From Planctomycetota bacterium (GTDB lineage: Bacteria > Planctomycetota > SZUA-567 > H5-PLA8), in assembly GCA_038227875.1 (NCBI GenBank), contig JBBRPR010000004.1, positions 96,001 to 160,000 of the forward strand: DNA of 64,000 nucleotides, in the 5' to 3' direction. This document shows positions 3,017 to 57,419 of the stretch, one piece after another (within the stretch, counting starts at the first letter, position 1; every line of letters begins with the position of its first letter). The notes under the pieces are model-generated. The model had not been told where the DNA came from. It worked only from the letters and a program-made list of their open reading frames with translations, and did no database searches. Made by a program: the position numbers and the translations under genes.

Positions 3017-3158
3017 CAACGGGGTCAGGGGCCAAGGGTCAGAATAGAGTGTGCGCAGGGAAGGGGTGGGCGGGGTTTTGCTTTTGGGTGGAGTTAAAAA
3101 GAAGTGAAGTTTGGCGAGAAGCTTCGCTCTCGCCTTGAGAATTTTGGGGAGGTACGTG

Positions 3159-50196: not shown

Positions 50197-51837
50197 TCAG
50201 CCAATCTGTTTTGGCAGTGCATCGAAGGCATGCTGGAGCGATTTCGCCTGACCGGGATTGACCATGGCGACGTAGGCAATCATGCCTTGGAGCCATGCTT
50301 CGAAGTGCGGCAGCTTTGCACGGTTCTGCGCGGCGAGTCCCTCTTTGCCGGCGCGATGAAGAATCGCGCGGAGTCGGCGGGCGAGTTTGCGCGGAACACC
50401 GGGGCGCCGGTTGACAACGATGCCCGTCACCATTTGCGCGGTGTTGGCGCGTTGAATGCGCGTCTTCTTTTCGTTGACGTCGAAGCCTTCGTGTTCGGCG
50501 ATGTGACGGATGCGTGCCAGGAGATAGCCGCTCTTTGCAGCCGCGTCGTGGCTGGCGGAAAATGTGAGATCATCGGCGTAGCGCGTGTAGGTCCAGCCGA
50601 GCTTTGTGGCGATGCCTTTCAAGCGGCGGTCCATCCGGCGCGACGCCAGATTGCTCAGCGCGGGGCTGGTACAGGCGCCCTGCGGCAGCACGCGCGGGCC
50701 GGTGGCGACGTGGTAGACGGTGCCGGCGTACGTCACGGATTTTCGAGGAGACTCCGTGCACAGCAGCGCGAAAATCGTGGCCACGGCCGGGGAGTATCCA
50801 AGCTTCTTGAAGATTCCGCGCACACGGCGGAACGAAACGGTAGGGAAGAAATCCTTCAGGTCCACGTTCACCACCACATTTTGGCCGACGTGCGGCGTCG
50901 CGTTGGTCAAGGTGTTGTGTCCGGGGGTAAATCCGTGTGCGCATTCGGGAATTTCAATGCGCTTGAGAATCTGATTGTAAATCCACTGCTGGCAGCGGGC
51001 GAGATCGCGGTGCGGTGCCGACAATTCGCGCGTCCCACCGCTCTTCTTGGGCACGGTGAAGGTGACGTAATGCGTGCGCGTTGCCGTCTCGGCATGAAAC
51101 GCCAGCCAGCGCAGCCGCTTGATGGACAACTCCAGTGCCTGCGCCACGTCCGCCGGAGTAGCCAGCAGCGGCAGATGAGCGGCGGTGAGCGCTTCGACGT
51201 TCGCGCGGCGATCGGCCAGGCCCTTCGACACGCCGCGTCCCAGGTAGATGATGTCGGTGGCCTTGCGCTGCGCCACGCCTTCGGCGTGTTTCAGTTTGCG
51301 AGCGGCAGCCTCCGCTTTTTTGCGCGCTCTCAGTTCCGCGCGCTCCTGCTCGTTTTGTTTCACAGCCTGCCGCGCCTGGGCTTCGGCATGGGCCAGGTCC
51401 GGCTTCAGGCGCGCCATTTCGTCGCCGATTTTGTGCGCTTCGAGAAGCTGTTCGGGCGTGATCAGTCCGGCGCCGACCATGCCGCGGTCGATGATCTCCG
51501 TACGCGGATCACTGGCCGGCGGAATGAGATCGCGGCGGCCGAACCACGGACTGGAGAAGCGCGAGGTGAGCGCCTTCGCGCGTTTGTTTAATTCATCGCG
51601 GCTCAGCGGCGCGAATTGAGCGAGGTTGAGATTGAGCGTGACCGGTTTGGGCTGCGGCCGGGGTGGCTGACCCGACGCGGGCGCCGCCGGTGCAGTCCGC
51701 GGGGAATTCTGTGGAGCGGGATTCGCGCGCGTTAAACTCGATGCGGTCTGCGGAGCAGGCGCCGCCGGTCCGGCGGGGCGTTCCGGCGCTTTAGCCGGGC
51801 CGAAAAGAAATTCGCGCAACCAATCCGCCAAACCCAT
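50197..51837 (-). CDS. Retron-type reverse transcriptase (Mx162/Mx65-like, long N-terminal extension)
   Basis: PKKSGGTRELSAP, region X NATPH (NAxxH), DLKDFFP, LPQGACTSPALSN, YTRYADDLTFS and region Y QMVTGIVVN. No maturase or endonuclease domain. Confidence 0.93.
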   Translation of the reverse strand: MGLADWLREFLFGPAKAPERPAGPAAPAPQTASSLTRANPAPQNSPRTAPAAPASGQPPRPQPKPVTLNLNLAQFAPLSRDELNKRAKALTSRFSSPWFGRRDLIPPASDPRTEIIDRGMVGAGLITPEQLLEAHKIGDEMARLKPDLAHAEAQARQAVKQNEQERAELRARKKAEAAARKLKHAEGVAQRKATDIIYLGRGVSKGLADRRANVEALTAAHLPLLATPADVAQALELSIKRLRWLAFHAETATRTHYVTFTVPKKSGGTRELSAPHRDLARCQQWIYNQILKRIEIPECAHGFTPGHNTLTNATPHVGQNVVVNVDLKDFFPTVSFRRVRGIFKKLGYSPAVATIFALLCTESPRKSVTYAGTVYHVATGPRVLPQGACTSPALSNLASRRMDRRLKGIATKLGWTYTRYADDLTFSASHDAAAKSGYLLARIRHIAEHEGFDVNEKKTRIQRANTAQMVTGIVVNRRPGVPRKLARRLRAILHRAGKEGLAAQNRAKLPHFEAWLQGMIAYVAMVNPGQAKSLQHAFDALPKQIG

Positions 51838-51871
51838 GAACCGTTCCTATAAATGGAGCGTGCAAAAAAAC

Positions 51872-52099
51872 CGGGCGGGAGCGGCGGCCTTCTGACTTCT
51901 TCCCTATGACCAAGGTCGTTCACCCAAGAGCCAGCGACCAGTGTCGCCGGGTAAACTCTCGGGTTGTTCATGGTCCCGGCGACACTGGTCGCTGGCTCAC
52001 CACGCACAACGGCCTTGGGGACGCATGTACAGGCCAAATGCAACCACGGCGGAACACCGTAGTAGAACTTGTCTCAGTCGGCACGCGCGCTCCCACCCG
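51872..52099 (-). ncRNA. Retron msr-msd non-coding RNA
   Basis: 12-nt terminal arms (52088-52099 and 51872-51883, one G-U pair), msr hairpin 52044-52062, perfect 24-bp msd stem (51928-51951 and 51975-51998), outer stem (51910-51920 and 52008-52018). Lies directly upstream of the RT. Confidence 0.85.
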
Positions 52100-52116
52100 A
52101 AGCAGCATTGAACTTC

Positions 52117-53817
52117 TTATTCACCTTTAAAGAGATATCCAAAGTCGTACCAACGGTCTGATTTCTCCGCAACTCCACTCTTGCCGCTGCGCCAGACCAA
52201 CGCGCGCAACGCCAGCAAATGACGGCATGGCCCCCTGCGGATGCCACCGCGCTGATGATGGATGCACAGGCATTTTCCCCGGCGGATGCGGCCGTCGGGG
52301 TCGATTAGCAATTCGATGGGCGTGCTTTCGGAATTGCCGATGTAAAGCTTGCCGCCGTTGGGCGCGTCCTGTGTGGACTCCAGTTTGACGCGGCCCCTGG
52401 CGATGATTTGACGCGAGGCGATCAGCTCGGGATTCTCCGGGCCCATCTGATCTTCGCCCAGCGCCATGGGCATGATCTGACGCCAGCGGTAGCGCGCGGC
52501 ATGCAGGTCGTAGATCAATTGCCCGGAGTGCGCGAGTTGATTTAACGCCGCAGCCGTTTCGGCAGGACTGGCCGGCACGGTGGCATTGATTTCCGCGAAC
52601 GTCGACGCCTTGGATTCACGAACGCAACGCGAGACGTCGTAGATCATCTGCCGCGGCACTTCCGCCGTCGGCGCGAGCAGATCCAGCGCGCTGCTGCTGG
52701 TCCAATCGTTGGCCGTCCAGCCGGAGAGGCCCAGTGTCAGGCGCATTTCGCCCATGTTGGCGACCCAGAAATGCGGCATTCCGGTGCCCAGCAGATAGAC
52801 ATCCAGGCTCTCGATCAGTGGCAGCAAGCGGGCGAGCACCAGCAGGCGGCGCGTGCCCCAGACGCGGATGGGTTCTCCGCCGGGTCCGTTGTAAACCACG
52901 CCGTGTGCGACAACCGGTTGCTCCCAGGGCTCCAGCACCAGGCGCGGCGCCTGCCCGGGAATCAGTTCAAAGCGCAGTGCCCGCGGGCTTGACCGTGCCT
53001 TGTGGCGCTTGAGCCAGGCGCAAATGGAATATAACACTTCGCGCGTGAGCGTGACTTTACGCATGGGCAAACCCATCGCGCTTTGAATCTGCATGAAGCC
53101 GCGCAGCCACGAAGGCGGCAGGTCGATTTTCTCTTCGCGGTAATCGGCATTGCCCGCGGTGGCGACGCTGAATCCGGCGGGATCGATGCGGAAGCGCGTT
53201 TCCCTGTAGGAGCGCAGGCCCTGGAAATGATTGTAGAGATCCCAGGAGTAATCGACGTTGGTGGTACCGAACTTTTCGCCCTCGGACTTTCCAAAGGCGT
53301 CGCGCTGCACGGTCAGGCAGCCGTAGCTGGATTCGTCGGCCGAGAAACATTCGAAGAACACCACGTCCGGCGCCACGGTGATCACCGGATCGCAGGGCAT
53401 CAACAGCCGCCACATTTCCTGATCGTTTTTGAGCAGGTAGTTGGAATACTTCAGGCGGGCGTCCCAGTAAAGCCGGCGCTGCCGTTCGAATTGCCGTTCG
53501 AAGTCAGCGGGGACGGGCTGGTCCCGTTGCTTCAGGATGTCCACTTTCGCGCGCTCGTATTCTTCGCGCTGAAGATTTGCCATCCGCTCCTGTTCGCGCT
53601 TTTTCCATTCGTCATACGCGCTCTTGTCGCGCGGCTTGAAGCGCAGGTCGTTGATCACTACGTCGTGAAGCGCGGAGACGGCTTCGCGGAACCGCAGGGG
53701 CTTCAGCAATTGCGCGTCGAAAGCAACAGGATCGCGGGCGAGATTGGGCGAGAGGCTGAGCACCTTGCCCTCGCCGCGCAGCGCGCTGCGTCCGAGGTAG
53801 GCGAATTTGACGTTCAT
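52117..53817 (-). CDS. Retron-associated winged-helix plus SWIM zinc-finger protein
   Basis: C-terminal CLC-x(12)-CRH SWIM motif and wHTH-like AAALNQLAHSGQLIYDL..ARYRWR. N-terminal DPVITV...FFECFSADESSYG. Confidence 0.85.
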   Translation of the reverse strand: MNVKFAYLGRSALRGEGKVLSLSPNLARDPVAFDAQLLKPLRFREAVSALHDVVINDLRFKPRDKSAYDEWKKREQERMANLQREEYERAKVDILKQRDQPVPADFERQFERQRRLYWDARLKYSNYLLKNDQEMWRLLMPCDPVITVAPDVVFFECFSADESSYGCLTVQRDAFGKSEGEKFGTTNVDYSWDLYNHFQGLRSYRETRFRIDPAGFSVATAGNADYREEKIDLPPSWLRGFMQIQSAMGLPMRKVTLTREVLYSICAWLKRHKARSSPRALRFELIPGQAPRLVLEPWEQPVVAHGVVYNGPGGEPIRVWGTRRLLVLARLLPLIESLDVYLLGTGMPHFWVANMGEMRLTLGLSGWTANDWTSSSALDLLAPTAEVPRQMIYDVSRCVRESKASTFAEINATVPASPAETAAALNQLAHSGQLIYDLHAARYRWRQIMPMALGEDQMGPENPELIASRQIIARGRVKLESTQDAPNGGKLYIGNSESTPIELLIDPDGRIRRGKCLCIHHQRGGIRRGPCRHLLALRALVWRSGKSGVAEKSDRWYDFGYLFKGE

Positions 53818-55601
53818 TTCTTCGCCTCCAGGGTTGCAGCTTCGAGTTGCAATTCCGGAACGAAGCGCTGGATGCTGCCGGCAATTTCCGGCCGTGCACC
53901 TGCTGCCGCAACCAACGCCGCCAGCCCCGCACGCGCTTCAGACGGACGCACAGAACGCACCGCCACGGCCAACACCGGAAGCAGGTCGACGGCGCGCTGC
54001 GGATTTTCCAGGATCGCCGCGCCGATCTGGCGCACGGCCTTGCCCTTCTGCCGTCCGCCGCGGTGCACACCCAGGAGCACCGCACACCAGACCGGAATCA
54101 GCACGTCGGCGCTGGTGCCCGGCAATTTCGAGCGGACTTCGAGCAGATCGACGAGTTTCAGGCGCACGTCGTCGTAGGGTGTTTCCACCATGCGCGCCCA
54201 GAGGCCCGCGTCGTCGAAAGCGGCGGCCGAATTCGGTGTTCCGGAGACGATCCACTGCCACGCCGCGCCGCGAATTTCGGGTTGCAGGCTGTCGAAGAAA
54301 CGGGAGATCAAATCGCGCACATAGACGTCGCGCCCGCCGAGAATTCCCAGCGCCCACTGGCCCAGCTCCGCGCCGATGGCGCCGCAGCGTGCGGCGGCAA
54401 CCGCGGCGATGGCTTCGCGGTCTTCCGGCGATTCGATGCGTTTGGCTTTCAGCAGCGTAAATCCCAATCGCGCGACGGGCGCGGCGCGTTCGCAGGTCAT
54501 TTCGATCGCCTGCGCCAGTTCCAGCCGCTCGGGCTGGACGAACTTTACAAAGCAGTCGGCGATGATCTGGAGCGCGCTGAGATTGCGCGTCTTCAACAGC
54601 CGCAGCCAGCCGCTCACGGGAAGTTTTTCGAGCCCCGCCGCCGTTTTCAGCAATTCCGCGCCGAAATGCTGGACCTCTTCGTCCTCGTGATCGAGCAGCT
54701 TCAACAAGTCCTCAGGCGAGGCGCCGTGCAGTGCGTCCTGATGCGTGGCGCGCAGCAGTTGGATACTCCAGACGCGCACCAGCCGCGCCTTTGCGTCGGT
54801 GACGAGATTCAGCAGCAGCGGCGCGCACTCGGTTTTGGACCACAGCTTGGGAAACGCGGGCGCGGCGGTGAGATCCGAAAGCCCGCGGTTCTCTTTCAAT
54901 TTGATCTGCGCGGCGCCGAAGAGCAACGCGTCATGGCGCATGAAACAGGCGTGCAGCAGCGACCATGAATCCAGGACGTTGGGCCCGCTCGCGAGGGACT
55001 CGTCGGTGTAGAGCGCCAGCGCGCGTGCAATCAGCGCCGGGTATTCGTTGGGTCGCTGGAAACCCGCGCGCCGGAAATACCGCCACGCGCGGCGACGGAG
55101 GTAATATCGGGTGCTGTAGGAGAACAGCATAAAGCCGTGGCGATTTCTCACCTTGCCGGGCACCGAGACAATGGCGCCGGTCTTGGGATTGCGCGCGGTT
55201 GTGGGCCGGTAGGCATTGCGGGGTGCATAGAGATGTTCGATCGGCACCGCGCGGCGCTCTTCGCGATTCCAGGCGTGGCGCGTGCGGAGGGACCGGCGGA
55301 CCAGCCCGTCGAATCCGGCGAGGAACACCGCCATCAATTCATCGTCTTTGCGCGCTTCGGCGTGCTTGAACAAGCGTTTGACCAGTGGCTGATGGCCGTT
55401 GCGGTCGAACGGCATCGCCGCGTAAGCCAGCATCTGCTGCCGCGCCCACGGTCGCGGGTCCTTCTTCCAGCGTTCGGCCAGACCGGCGAGTTTTTTGGAA
55501 TCGTTTACGTTCCGCAATTCGTCGACAAAGCGCGAATCTTCGGCGTTGAAATACTCATCCATCAGCAACGATGAGCCGGAATTCGCCGACGGAAGCGCCA
55601 T
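53814..55601 (-). CDS. Retron-associated HEAT/ARM-like helical repeat protein
   Basis: LLKLLDHEDEEVQHFG, FFDSLQPEIRGAAW and MVETPYDDVRLKL repeats. ATGA overlap with the SWIM gene. Confidence 0.8.
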   Translation of the reverse strand: MALPSANSGSSLLMDEYFNAEDSRFVDELRNVNDSKKLAGLAERWKKDPRPWARQQMLAYAAMPFDRNGHQPLVKRLFKHAEARKDDELMAVFLAGFDGLVRRSLRTRHAWNREERRAVPIEHLYAPRNAYRPTTARNPKTGAIVSVPGKVRNRHGFMLFSYSTRYYLRRRAWRYFRRAGFQRPNEYPALIARALALYTDESLASGPNVLDSWSLLHACFMRHDALLFGAAQIKLKENRGLSDLTAAPAFPKLWSKTECAPLLLNLVTDAKARLVRVWSIQLLRATHQDALHGASPEDLLKLLDHEDEEVQHFGAELLKTAAGLEKLPVSGWLRLLKTRNLSALQIIADCFVKFVQPERLELAQAIEMTCERAAPVARLGFTLLKAKRIESPEDREAIAAVAAARCGAIGAELGQWALGILGGRDVYVRDLISRFFDSLQPEIRGAAWQWIVSGTPNSAAAFDDAGLWARMVETPYDDVRLKLVDLLEVRSKLPGTSADVLIPVWCAVLLGVHRGGRQKGKAVRQIGAAILENPQRAVDLLPVLAVAVRSVRPSEARAGLAALVAAAGARPEIAGSIQRFVPELQLEAATLEAKK

Positions 55602-55754
55602 AAACTTTGCTCGCGAGAATAATTTTTTCGGATACGTGAATCACTCTTACTGGCTGGACCGTGCCTCGTCAATAATGGAATCGCGCCAATCGGCGTTGCG
55701 CTTTCCGCATTCCGGCGATTCGAATTTCTGCGCTGCTGCATTATCATCCCAACC

Positions 55755-57419
55755 ATGCCCCTTCACCGCTCGTGGCCTGCCTGGATTATGGCGGGGATTT
55801 TGTTTGCTTATGTTGTGTATCCCGTCGGCGCGATGCTCGGGCAAAGTCTCACGTTGCCGGTCAGTGAATACCGCGCCGACGAGATGGGTTGGAATCCAGA
55901 CCGGCAACCCTACGGCGCGCCGCTGCGGCGGCTGGCGGCGGAAAACAATGCGCTGGAGGCGCTCCGGCGTACGGCGGTGCTTGCGCTGGCGACTGTGCTG
56001 CTCGGCAGCGCGTGGGGCGGGGGACTGGCGCTGCTGTGGTGGCGGCGCGAATTTCCCGGCCGGCGTATTTTCGCGGCGCTGGGGTTTGCGCCGATTCTGC
56101 TCCCGCCGCTGGTGGGCACGATTGCGTTCTTCCGGCTGATTGGCGAAGGAGGCGCGCTCTGGCGACTGCTCGGCAGTGACGGGCGGCCGTTGTTGAGCGG
56201 CTTCGGGCAGGTGCTGATCGTTCATACGTATTCGTTCGGGATTTATGCGTACGCGTACGTCTCGGCGGCGCTGGAAGATCTCGACGTTTCTCAGGAAGAA
56301 GCGGCGCGGAGTCTCGGCGCGTCGGGGTTGCGTGTTTTTCTCACGTCCGTCTGGCCGACGATCCGCGCGCCGCTCCTGGCCAGCGCGTTCATCACGTTCA
56401 TGGCGGCGGCGGCGAGTTTCACTGCGCCGTATTTGCTCGACAACAGTCAGCGCTACCTCACCGTTGAGATTCTGAACAACGAAGGCGATCCGGGCATGCA
56501 ACGCGCGCTCAGCGTGGTGCTCGCCGCGCTGGCGTTGCTGGCGCTGCCGGCGTTTCTCTACATCAATGCGCGTGGAAAATTTGGCGACGATGTGGCGCTG
56601 AGCGTCAAGGGCGCGGCGCGGCGAGAGCTTCCGCCTGTGCATGGCGCCCGGGCGGCGCTGCACGTCGCGGTCTCGTGCGTCGCAGCGGTGATTCTCCTCG
56701 CTCCGCCGGTCACGGTGGTGATCAGCGCATTTGGCGCGCCGACGACGCCGCAGAATTCGTACACGTCGCTGCTGGGCGCGGTGGCGAGTTTGAACTTTGA
56801 CGACTGGAGTTCCATGGGGCGCAGTGCGCTCTATGCGCTCGCGGCGGCCGCGCTGGATATTGCCGTCGCGCTGGGTATCGCCTTGGCTTTACGCCGCAGC
56901 CGCGTGCTGCCGGCGACGCTGGTGGAATTTGCGGTGATGCTGGCCCTGGCGCTGCCGGGCAGCGCACTGGCGATCGCACTGCTCTCGGTTTTCAACGGAC
57001 GTTCGCTGCTGGCGTTTGGTGTGCCGCTGGGCGGCACGGGTGCGATCTTGATTCTCGCGTACTTCATCCGCGATCTGCCGCTGGCCGTGCGGCCCGTGCG
57101 CGCGGCGCTGAGTGCACTCGGCGCGAATCTGGAACATGCAGCGGCGGGCCTGGGCGCGGCGCCGATCAGCGTGCTCTGGCGCGTGACGCTGCCGCTGATG
57201 CTGCCGTCGGTGATTGCGGCGGCGCTGATTTGTTTTATTACCGGGCTGGGCGAATATGTGGCGTCAAAGTTACTGTATGGTCCGCTGACACAACCGGTCA
57301 GCCAGCGCATCGAAGAACTGTCCCGCAGCAGTCCGGCGTCCGGCTATGCTTTGGCGCTGTGGCTGATGCTCGGCAGCGCTGCGGTGATTGGGATTTCGCG
57401 GGTGGTTCGGAGGAGATGA
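55755..57419 (+). CDS. Iron(III)/thiamine-type ABC transporter permease (FbpB-like, duplicated TM domain)
   Basis: Two EAA loops (EEAARSLGAS and EHAAAGLGAA) and many TM segments. Confidence 0.9.
   Translation: MPLHRSWPAWIMAGILFAYVVYPVGAMLGQSLTLPVSEYRADEMGWNPDRQPYGAPLRRLAAENNALEALRRTAVLALATVLLGSAWGGGLALLWWRREFPGRRIFAALGFAPILLPPLVGTIAFFRLIGEGGALWRLLGSDGRPLLSGFGQVLIVHTYSFGIYAYAYVSAALEDLDVSQEEAARSLGASGLRVFLTSVWPTIRAPLLASAFITFMAAAASFTAPYLLDNSQRYLTVEILNNEGDPGMQRALSVVLAALALLALPAFLYINARGKFGDDVALSVKGAARRELPPVHGARAALHVAVSCVAAVILLAPPVTVVISAFGAPTTPQNSYTSLLGAVASLNFDDWSSMGRSALYALAAAALDIAVALGIALALRRSRVLPATLVEFAVMLALALPGSALAIALLSVFNGRSLLAFGVPLGGTGAILILAYFIRDLPLAVRPVRAALSALGANLEHAAAGLGAAPISVLWRVTLPLMLPSVIAAALICFITGLGEYVASKLLYGPLTQPVSQRIEELSRSSPASGYALALWLMLGSAAVIGISRVVRRR

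Follow-up and report, generated by a model that had tools for sequence, protein, structure and literature searches.

A very probable msr-msd template RNA gene of a type XIII retron in a Planctomycetota bacterium, with a conserved scaffold around a sequence-variable paired stem

The window considered here is the whole 64,000-nucleotide stretch of DNA that was analysed, from a Planctomycetota bacterium (assembly GCA_038227875.1, contig JBBRPR010000004.1, positions 96,001 to 160,000), and all coordinates are numbered from its first letter. On its minus strand, in the order HEAT/ARM gene, SWIM gene, msr/msd and reverse transcriptase (RT) gene, the following features are found:

53814-55601, minus strand: HEAT/ARM-repeat accessory gene, 595 aa (PADLOC HEAT-ARM_XIII PDLC02922, E 1.2e-192)
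52117-53817, minus strand: SWIM zinc-finger gene, 566 aa, predicted effector or partner (PADLOC SWIM_XIII PDLC02972, E 1.7e-184)
51872-52099, minus strand: msr-msd ncRNA gene, a1 to a2, 228 nt (fold z -8.72; 104 homologues; covariation)
50197-51837, minus strand: retron reverse transcriptase gene, 546 aa (PADLOC RT_XIII PDLC02956, E 2.2e-158)

The 3' end of the HEAT/ARM gene and the start of the SWIM gene share 4 nt, and the RNA element lies within the 279-nt intergenic gap between the stop of the 566-aa ORF and the ATG of the 546-aa ORF, 18 nt past the former and 35 nt ahead of the latter. The HEAT/ARM product has no Pfam or NCBIfam match, while the SWIM_XIII profile match spans the whole 566-aa protein, the translation of which contains a C-terminal CxCx12CxH. 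In the RT, Pfam RVT_1 matches residues 262-463 (E 3.6e-19), leaving an N-terminal extension of ~260 aa. Sixty-four PADLOC retron RT models match this protein, with RT_XIII at the top (526 bits) and RT_other as runner-up (340 bits); against the NCBIfam retron models the RT scores under their cut-offs (e.g., 201.7 versus 235 for St85). The motifs NAXXH (region X), VTG (region Y) and YADD are given as those of retron RTs in the accessible text of PMC7736814 and PMC6868368, and all three occur in the translation (the first as NATPH), which carries the signatures of a retron RT. Residues 1-260 begin with a stretch rich in Pro and Ala, after which comes a charged and probably helical segment. The extreme N-terminus is kept in homologues: DWLREFLF, from this N-terminus, was one of the six patterns of a peptide scan, and loci L001 and L003, two of the three loci that it recovered, match from residue 1.

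According to Table 1 of PMC7736814, retron type XIII is the combination of an RT of clade 10 with SWIM and HEAT/ARM proteins, and the accessible text of that paper describes a winged-helix protein that has a SWIM finger CxCx12CxH at its C-terminus (cluster 114) and a preceding HEAT/ARM gene (cluster 216 and others). All three components are present in the window, with the RT clade assigned by best profile score, the SWIM protein by profile and finger motif, and the HEAT/ARM protein by profile.

Two further observations concern the surroundings. A 338-aa ORF (55647-56663) shares the minus strand with the HEAT/ARM gene, 45 nt upstream of it, and is without a Pfam, PADLOC or NCBIfam match. On another contig of the same genome (C83; L021:1495-4379) there is a second type XIII retron, in which a SWIM-like gene is followed by a 224-nt gap and an RT of 462 aa; the ncRNA sequence is unrelated to that in the window, and within the gap positions 2913-2926 and 3117-3130 form an inverted repeat resembling a1/a2, while a hairpin there has arms of 37 nt (2946-2982 / 3022-3058).

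The minus-strand RNA of positions 51860-52110 folds at -138.5 kcal/mol, compared with -94.81 +/- 5.01 in 200 dinucleotide shuffles (z -8.72; 0/200 as good). The parts of the structure are as follows:

52074-52099, minus strand: a1, 5' arm of the closing stem (pairs with 51872-51895 in the fold)
52073, minus strand: predicted branching (priming) G (directly after the last a1/a2 pair; invariant AG)
52043-52063, minus strand: conserved msr hairpin, 9 bp, UUC loop (98.9% of cells paired, 100 sequences)
52008-52018, minus strand: 5' arm of the outer msd stem, opposite 51910-51920 (over 10 pairs, 98.3% of cells are paired)
51928-51998, minus strand: long msd hairpin, in which 51998-51975 and 51951-51928 form a perfect stem of 24 bp closed by a 23-nt loop, 51974-51952 (RNA and DNA folds)
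51910-51920, minus strand: outer msd stem, 3' arm (cDNA fold, pair conservation, covariation)
51872-51895, minus strand: a2, 3' arm of the closing stem (fold, pair conservation, covariation)

In the closing helix, CGGGUGGGAGCG (52099-52088) pairs with CGCUCCCGCCCG (51883-51872), and in the minimum free energy (MFE) structure the a1/a2 helix extends inward through GCG/CGC, GCC/GGC and CUGA/UCAG, after which G52073 is the first unpaired base. The msr hairpin gains an extra A52063-U52043 pair beyond 52062-52044 in the fold. When the plus strand (51896-52030) is folded with DNA parameters, the result, at -42.7 kcal/mol, is an outer stem of 11 positions (52018-52008 with 51920-51910) in which G52012 and T51916 form a wobble, then an internal loop and the 24-bp stem capped by the 23-nt loop; 200 shuffles give -20.55 +/- 2.66 (z -8.33; 0 as good). 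The msr-msd structure is far beyond chance. The original prediction, made from the sequence before any database was consulted, had proposed an msr-msd fold at 51872-52099; every pairing that it listed is found where it was placed, and the DNA fold reproduces the outer stem, internal loop, long stem and loop that it had drawn for the msd. Of the two small msr hairpins that it described, the one at 52062-52044 is present and conserved, but the other, GCAU (52041-52038) with AUGC (52026-52023), exists in the sequence and is unused in the MFE structure. Among the 104 homologues described below, the outer G-C pair of the latter hairpin is kept in 103/104, while its other pairs are Watson-Crick in 42, 27 and 35/104; it is thus unconserved.

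Searches for expression signals and for known RNAs around the element gave little. No sigma-70-like promoter was found in a sigma-70 promoter scan, and the only call of a terminator scan lies on the plus strand inside the hairpin loop and is no better than calls in shuffles. A run of seven U (51870-51864, minus strand) directly follows a2, 27 nt before the RT start codon, and was left uncalled by that scan; together with the a1/a2 helix it could form a partial terminator that sets the ratio of ncRNA to RT mRNA. Such a U-run was not seen as a feature of the family, where at least 5 U in 8 follow a2 in 3/98 sequences, a count that depends on unreliable RNAduplex placement. The a1/a2 lengths from RNAduplex are over-extended (28 pairs for the window versus 22 by eye), with 64/98 anchored at the priming G, and were not relied on. 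At E <= 1, Rfam returns two mir-21 matches (E 0.31 and 0.59) with scores of 21.6 and 20.6 bits versus a threshold of 52, which are chance hairpins. A 151-nt contig from a public RNA library covers 51994-52138 with 0 differences and so runs out of the last part of the SWIM gene into the msr; it may represent DNA carry-over, and is weak evidence for a whole-operon transcript because DNA can occur in such libraries. The public runs were compared as contigs, a form that carries no information on the ends or levels of RNA or msDNA. These contigs break at 51972-52000, which is the position of the palindrome, and no meaning is attached to the breaks. In public runs other than the probable source, the element has word shares of only 0.06-0.14, and therefore no habitat is inferred.

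Homologues were collected by protein and by RNA sequence. The protein-based scan yielded three loci, belonging to Pirellulaceae, Anatilimnocola and a MAG of Planctomycetota, and RT_XIII-like genes are present in 118/401 Planctomycetota genomes at E <= 1e-40, a count that includes the second copy in the genome of the window and a threshold that may admit other retron RT types. All 12 upstream regions compared (the window and 11 loci with an RT at least 51% identical, two of these loci being mutually identical) contain a perfect hairpin of 14-26 bp in the same place. The hairpin sequences are unrelated among the 12 regions, the flanks are strongly conserved, and the spacing of two conserved blocks is 82-85 nt in 11/11 aligned sequences. 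Scanning the genome collection with a degenerate pattern of these two blocks gave at least 122 stretches; among the 122 matches listed, 92 fit the ncRNA profile built on the first alignment, and the remaining 30 are chance matches in unrelated phyla. The profile-fitting matches, the window and the three earlier loci together provide 104 distinct ncRNAs. Taxa are available for 80 among the matches listed and are mostly Planctomycetota, with some Verrucomicrobiota, Kuenenia and Sumerlaeia MAGs. The search pattern fixes 20 bases of the outer stem, which are therefore invariant by construction, with no effect on the free positions or on the other helices. Where at least 1500 nt were available on both sides, 49/51 ncRNA copies are within 900 nt of a same-strand gene resembling RT or SWIM, arranged as SWIM-ncRNA-RT (25), ncRNA-RT (9) or ncRNA-SWIM (15). 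The Planctomycetota ncRNA profile also matches 2/29 Myxococcota RT_XIII loci (L190:3182-3375, E 7.8e-13; L191:3214-3421, E 1.5e-13), and because of these two loci the ncRNA subfamily can be said to extend beyond the PVC group. An automatic hairpin scan of the 29 Myxococcota loci found perfect stems of 8-18 bp in 18 and none in 11, and its flank-duplex figures are uninformative.

Conservation in these homologues follows the fold. The AG containing G52073, a motif that lies outside the search pattern, is invariant in 104/104, in agreement with the original prediction of this G as the candidate branching nucleotide at the first position after a1/a2; the branch itself is predicted. The four inner a1/a2 pairs are Watson-Crick in 93-103/104, with exchanges of whole pairs (C-G 53 / U-A 50; G-C 80 / A-U 23), and the inner a1/a2 helix is 98.3% paired and covarying. 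RNAalifold predicts 52 pairs from 11 sequences, 33 of them with compensatory changes. Covariation was then measured on 100 sequences, aligned with MAFFT from sequence only, for a fixed set of 68 pairs; one further sequence had been left out for an over-long segment and three for lack of anchors. Paired cells amount to 81.1% versus 64.4% in shuffles, and 1407 cells are changed on both sides versus 595 in shuffles, although the homologues are related, which makes independent events fewer than such cell counts suggest. For covariation the score is 0.457 versus 0.175 shuffled (reached in 0/500), and shifting the structure by 1-3 columns gives at most 0.171. Covariation is seen in the a1/a2 stem, in one msr hairpin and in both msd stems; in the long stem, 24/24 pairs have changes on both sides. 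A lack of covariation had been named beforehand as grounds for giving up the proposed fold, and the covariation found is strong.

The mismatches tolerated in each helix differ between the two parts of the element. In minus sense, the msr hairpin contains 232 G.U versus 2 A.C cells (G.U in 67, 97, 35, 2 and 31/104 at five of its pairs), the inner a1/a2 pairs contain 5 G.U and 0 A.C, and the outer a1/a2 pairs have many G.U as well. The outer msd stem, by comparison, has 0 G.U over its 11 positions and 72 A.C/C.A cells, of which 57/104 fall at 52012/51916 (C.A in the RNA of the window, and G.T in the cDNA) and 8, 2, 4 and 1 elsewhere. The long stem is free of mismatches in 50/101 sequences. Its 58 mismatches in total, which lie at scattered positions although a few sequences share a stem, include 21 A.C/C.A versus 5 G.U (binomial p 0.0025) and, in RNA sense, 31 pyrimidine-pyrimidine versus 1 purine-purine (p 1.5e-8). 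An A.C in RNA is a G.T in the complementary DNA, and a pyrimidine-pyrimidine becomes a purine-purine; G.T, G.A and G.G are the least destabilising mismatches in DNA nearest-neighbour studies. The msd stems therefore admit only combinations that the complementary DNA can pair or stack well. These counts support the view that the uncopied parts (a1/a2 and msr) behave as RNA helices and the msd as plus-strand DNA helices, a contrast that a retron predicts because a2 and the msr are not copied. The original prediction had taken the single T-G pair in the DNA, A-C in the RNA, as a sign of selection on the DNA product, and the same pattern now extends over the whole family.

The same counts weigh on the reading of the element as a structured RNA leader or attenuator that controls expression of the RT gene with no cDNA involved. 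A pure RNA should accept G.U throughout, but the msd has 0 G.U and 72 A.C where the msr has 232 G.U and 2 A.C. The position directly upstream of the RT start and the terminator-like closing stem followed by seven U would suit a leader; however, the adjoining RT is of retron type with NAXXH and VTG, an invariant G stands exactly at the end of a1, and the simple terminator scan passed over the site, so that a leader alone is very improbable. A DNA-level or antisense element, either the end of a mobile element for a transposase-derived DEDE/SWIM protein or an RNA hairpin made from the plus strand, would account for the plus-sense wobbles of the msd stems, and the accessible text of PMC7736814 allows that SWIM proteins may derive from transposases. 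The a1/a2 and msr wobbles, however, are in minus sense, which means that two opposite molecules would be needed; no second inverted end was seen, the element is single-copy in the 9.3-Mb assembly, and an RT or SWIM gene adjoins it in fixed orientation in 49/51 cases, all of which make this origin highly unlikely. The long GC-rich intergenic palindrome might also be a REP-like repeat, which the original prediction had itself named as the finding that would undo it, or a plain intrinsic terminator of the SWIM gene, but this has next to no probability, given that the 251-nt element searched against the whole assembly (9.3 Mb, 88% complete) returns itself (E 1e-127) and its own hairpin on the opposite strand, the other 11 matches having E >= 0.31 over 15-32 nt, a single-copy status that removes the REP reading, and that features unrelated to such roles are conserved in the 104 homologues.

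Very probably, the element encodes the msr-msd template RNA of a type XIII retron that is intact (HEAT/ARM - SWIM - msr/msd - RT). For such a retron, priming, the ends of the msDNA, protein binding and any anti-phage role can be inferred from established retron biochemistry (accessible text of PMC7736814 and PMC6868368). A transcript, possibly of the whole operon, would fold so that a1 (52099-52074) pairs with a2 (51895-51872), and the RT would recognise the conserved msr hairpin (52063-52043). It would then prime on the 2'-OH of G52073 and copy from G51896 toward the 5' end of the RNA, in which case the msDNA would begin 5'-CTTC. Copying would stop between 52018 and ~52030, and RNase H would remove the template. 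The expected product is a branched RNA-DNA in which the msr RNA is joined to a DNA hairpin with a G.T-containing outer stem, the internal loop, the 24-bp stem and the 23-nt loop:

51896-52018, plus strand: predicted msDNA (cDNA), minimum extent, with the 3' end probably at 52018 to ~52030

The 5' end is placed at 51896 because this is the complement of the base just 5' of a2, and the cDNA-sense wobbles of the outer stem imply a cDNA that extends at least as far as 52018, in that stem's far arm. The msDNA is thus probably a hairpin of about 123-135 nt, from 51896 to ~52018-52030 on the plus strand. The original prediction had very roughly 110-130 nt at ~51897-52020; the 5' end is now predicted at 51896, with the cDNA extending to at least 52018. 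The conserved base and loop of the DNA hairpin are likely contact points for the SWIM and HEAT/ARM proteins, whereas the mid-stem is without sequence constraint. A literature search found no demonstration of an anti-phage function for type XIII, and the accessible text of PMC7736814 reports for this type a partly vertical inheritance, a correlation with host 16S and possible non-defence roles.

The long stem is variable in sequence. Across 101 homologues it has 15-30 Watson-Crick pairs (most commonly 25-26), and sequences that are identical in all 124 scaffold columns can differ at ~40% of arm positions (for example locus pairs L053/L052 and L135/L043). In a second contig of the probable source sample, the scaffold is kept but the stem is a different one ('skips 73, 72 letters between'). 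Diversifying selection was considered for the stem but finds no support: the arms of the two closest pairs have identities of 0.86 and 0.64, against 0.69 and 0.61 for four-fold sites in the RT gene. The stem has diverged no more than these sites, and neutral drift under a pairing constraint therefore suffices. Rice and Lampson (1995) reportedly described a variable domain in the stems of myxobacterial msDNA.

Some of the homologous loci hold two or three msr-msd genes (L057:2167-2754, L111:2124-2944, L117:2129-2558, L089:2160-2650, L109:241-746 and L130:224-713). The copies may stand in tandem, as in L057 (SWIM, two ncRNAs, RT) and L111 (three ncRNAs, then SWIM), or one may lie upstream of the SWIM gene and another between SWIM and RT (L098, L120 and L108). 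The tandem copies in L089 and L109 are ~97% alike in scaffold columns and 53-58% alike in stem-arm positions. A literature search for natural tandem msr-msd arrays found engineered arrays only, and natural ones may still be described. A speculative and rather doubtful reading is that a PVC-wide subfamily has an msDNA with an unchanging scaffold (a base stem containing the G.T wobble, internal loop and conserved tip) around a paired stem of ~25 bp that is free in sequence, that this stem carries the specificity, and that loci with several msr-msd genes are natural multi-template retrons with a repertoire of msDNAs per RT. If this is true, the single-copy element of the window is the simplest form of a naturally cargo-tolerant chassis for ssDNA.

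Apart from that reading, the analysis explains an unannotated intergenic fold as the template RNA of a known type of retron, and provides an alignment of ~100 ncRNA sequences for type XIII of Planctomycetota and neighbouring phyla, for which Rfam is without a matching model. The difference between G.U-tolerant and A.C-tolerant helices is a computational marker of the reverse-transcribed part and sets a minimum extent for the msDNA. A stem that changes freely yet stays paired suggests tolerance to inserted cargo, a property relevant to ssDNA production by retrons and to editing. Several relatives occur in isolates (Anatilimnocola, Novipirellula, Rhodopirellula, Bremerella, Singulisphaera and Tundrisphaera), in which the msDNA prediction may be directly testable.

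Mx162, the first retron ever found, and Sa163 come from myxobacteria, whereas the window comes from a member of the Planctomycetota. Both are experimentally known members of type XIII, as are Mx65 and Ne144 (Retron-Mxa1 is Mx162, Mxa2 is Mx65, Sau1 is Sa163 and Nex2 is Ne144; PMC7736814, accessible text). The RT, SWIM and HEAT/ARM profiles place the window in the same type as Mx162 and Sa163, and an N-terminal extension of the RT is common to the window and to the type XIII myxobacterial RTs described in the accessible text of PMC6868368. According to the same text, Mx162 is processed from a 241-nt precursor into a 71-nt msr and a 162-nt msDNA with an 8-base overlap. The core in the window is 228 nt against this precursor of 241 nt, and a long a1/a2 stem and a long-hairpin msDNA, predicted in the case of the window, are common to both; the msDNAs of Mx162 and Sa163 (162 and 163 nt) are longer than the length of about 123-135 nt predicted here from sequence. 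The priming G stands in an AG context in the window (GAGA) as in Mx162 (CAGC), and the contexts given in the accessible text of PMC6868368 are CAGC for Mx162 and Sa163, GAGC for Mx65 and CAGA for Ec67. The msDNA of Mx162 is experimentally proven, whereas that of the window is predicted, and only 2/29 of the Myxococcota type XIII loci show ncRNA sequence similarity to the family of the window (E ~1e-13). Retron-Eco1 (Ec86), the best-studied retron, has a short RT without an N-terminal extension and an 86-nt msDNA, and is of type II-A with another effector and another ncRNA. The a1/a2 stem, priming G, msd hairpin and RT motifs NAXXH/YADD/VTG are nevertheless shared with it (PMC7736814, accessible text). 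The architecture of the window (long a1/a2, one msr hairpin and long msd hairpin) agrees with the available text descriptions of type XIII, and since the founders of this type already make long hairpins, a long-hairpin msDNA is the expected product and no new feature.

Planctomycetota have been surveyed for this type before. The SPIRE survey (PMC13712802) reports, in its accessible text, 143 type XIII candidates, 26 of them in Planctomycetota; it classifies RTs and accessory genes, and that text contains no ncRNA model for the Planctomycetota type XIII clade. The main text of a retron census preprint (10.1101/2024.01.25.577267) does not mention type XIII, clade 10, Mxa1, Myxococcus or Planctomycetota, although its supplements may list tested type XIII members. 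The original prediction had proposed a candidate new retron; a retron msr-msd gene in an RT_XIII/SWIM_XIII context is indeed present, but the kind is a known one, type XIII. The evidence supports that prediction as correct overall, for a system of a known type that had already been counted in Planctomycetota (PMC13712802, accessible text).
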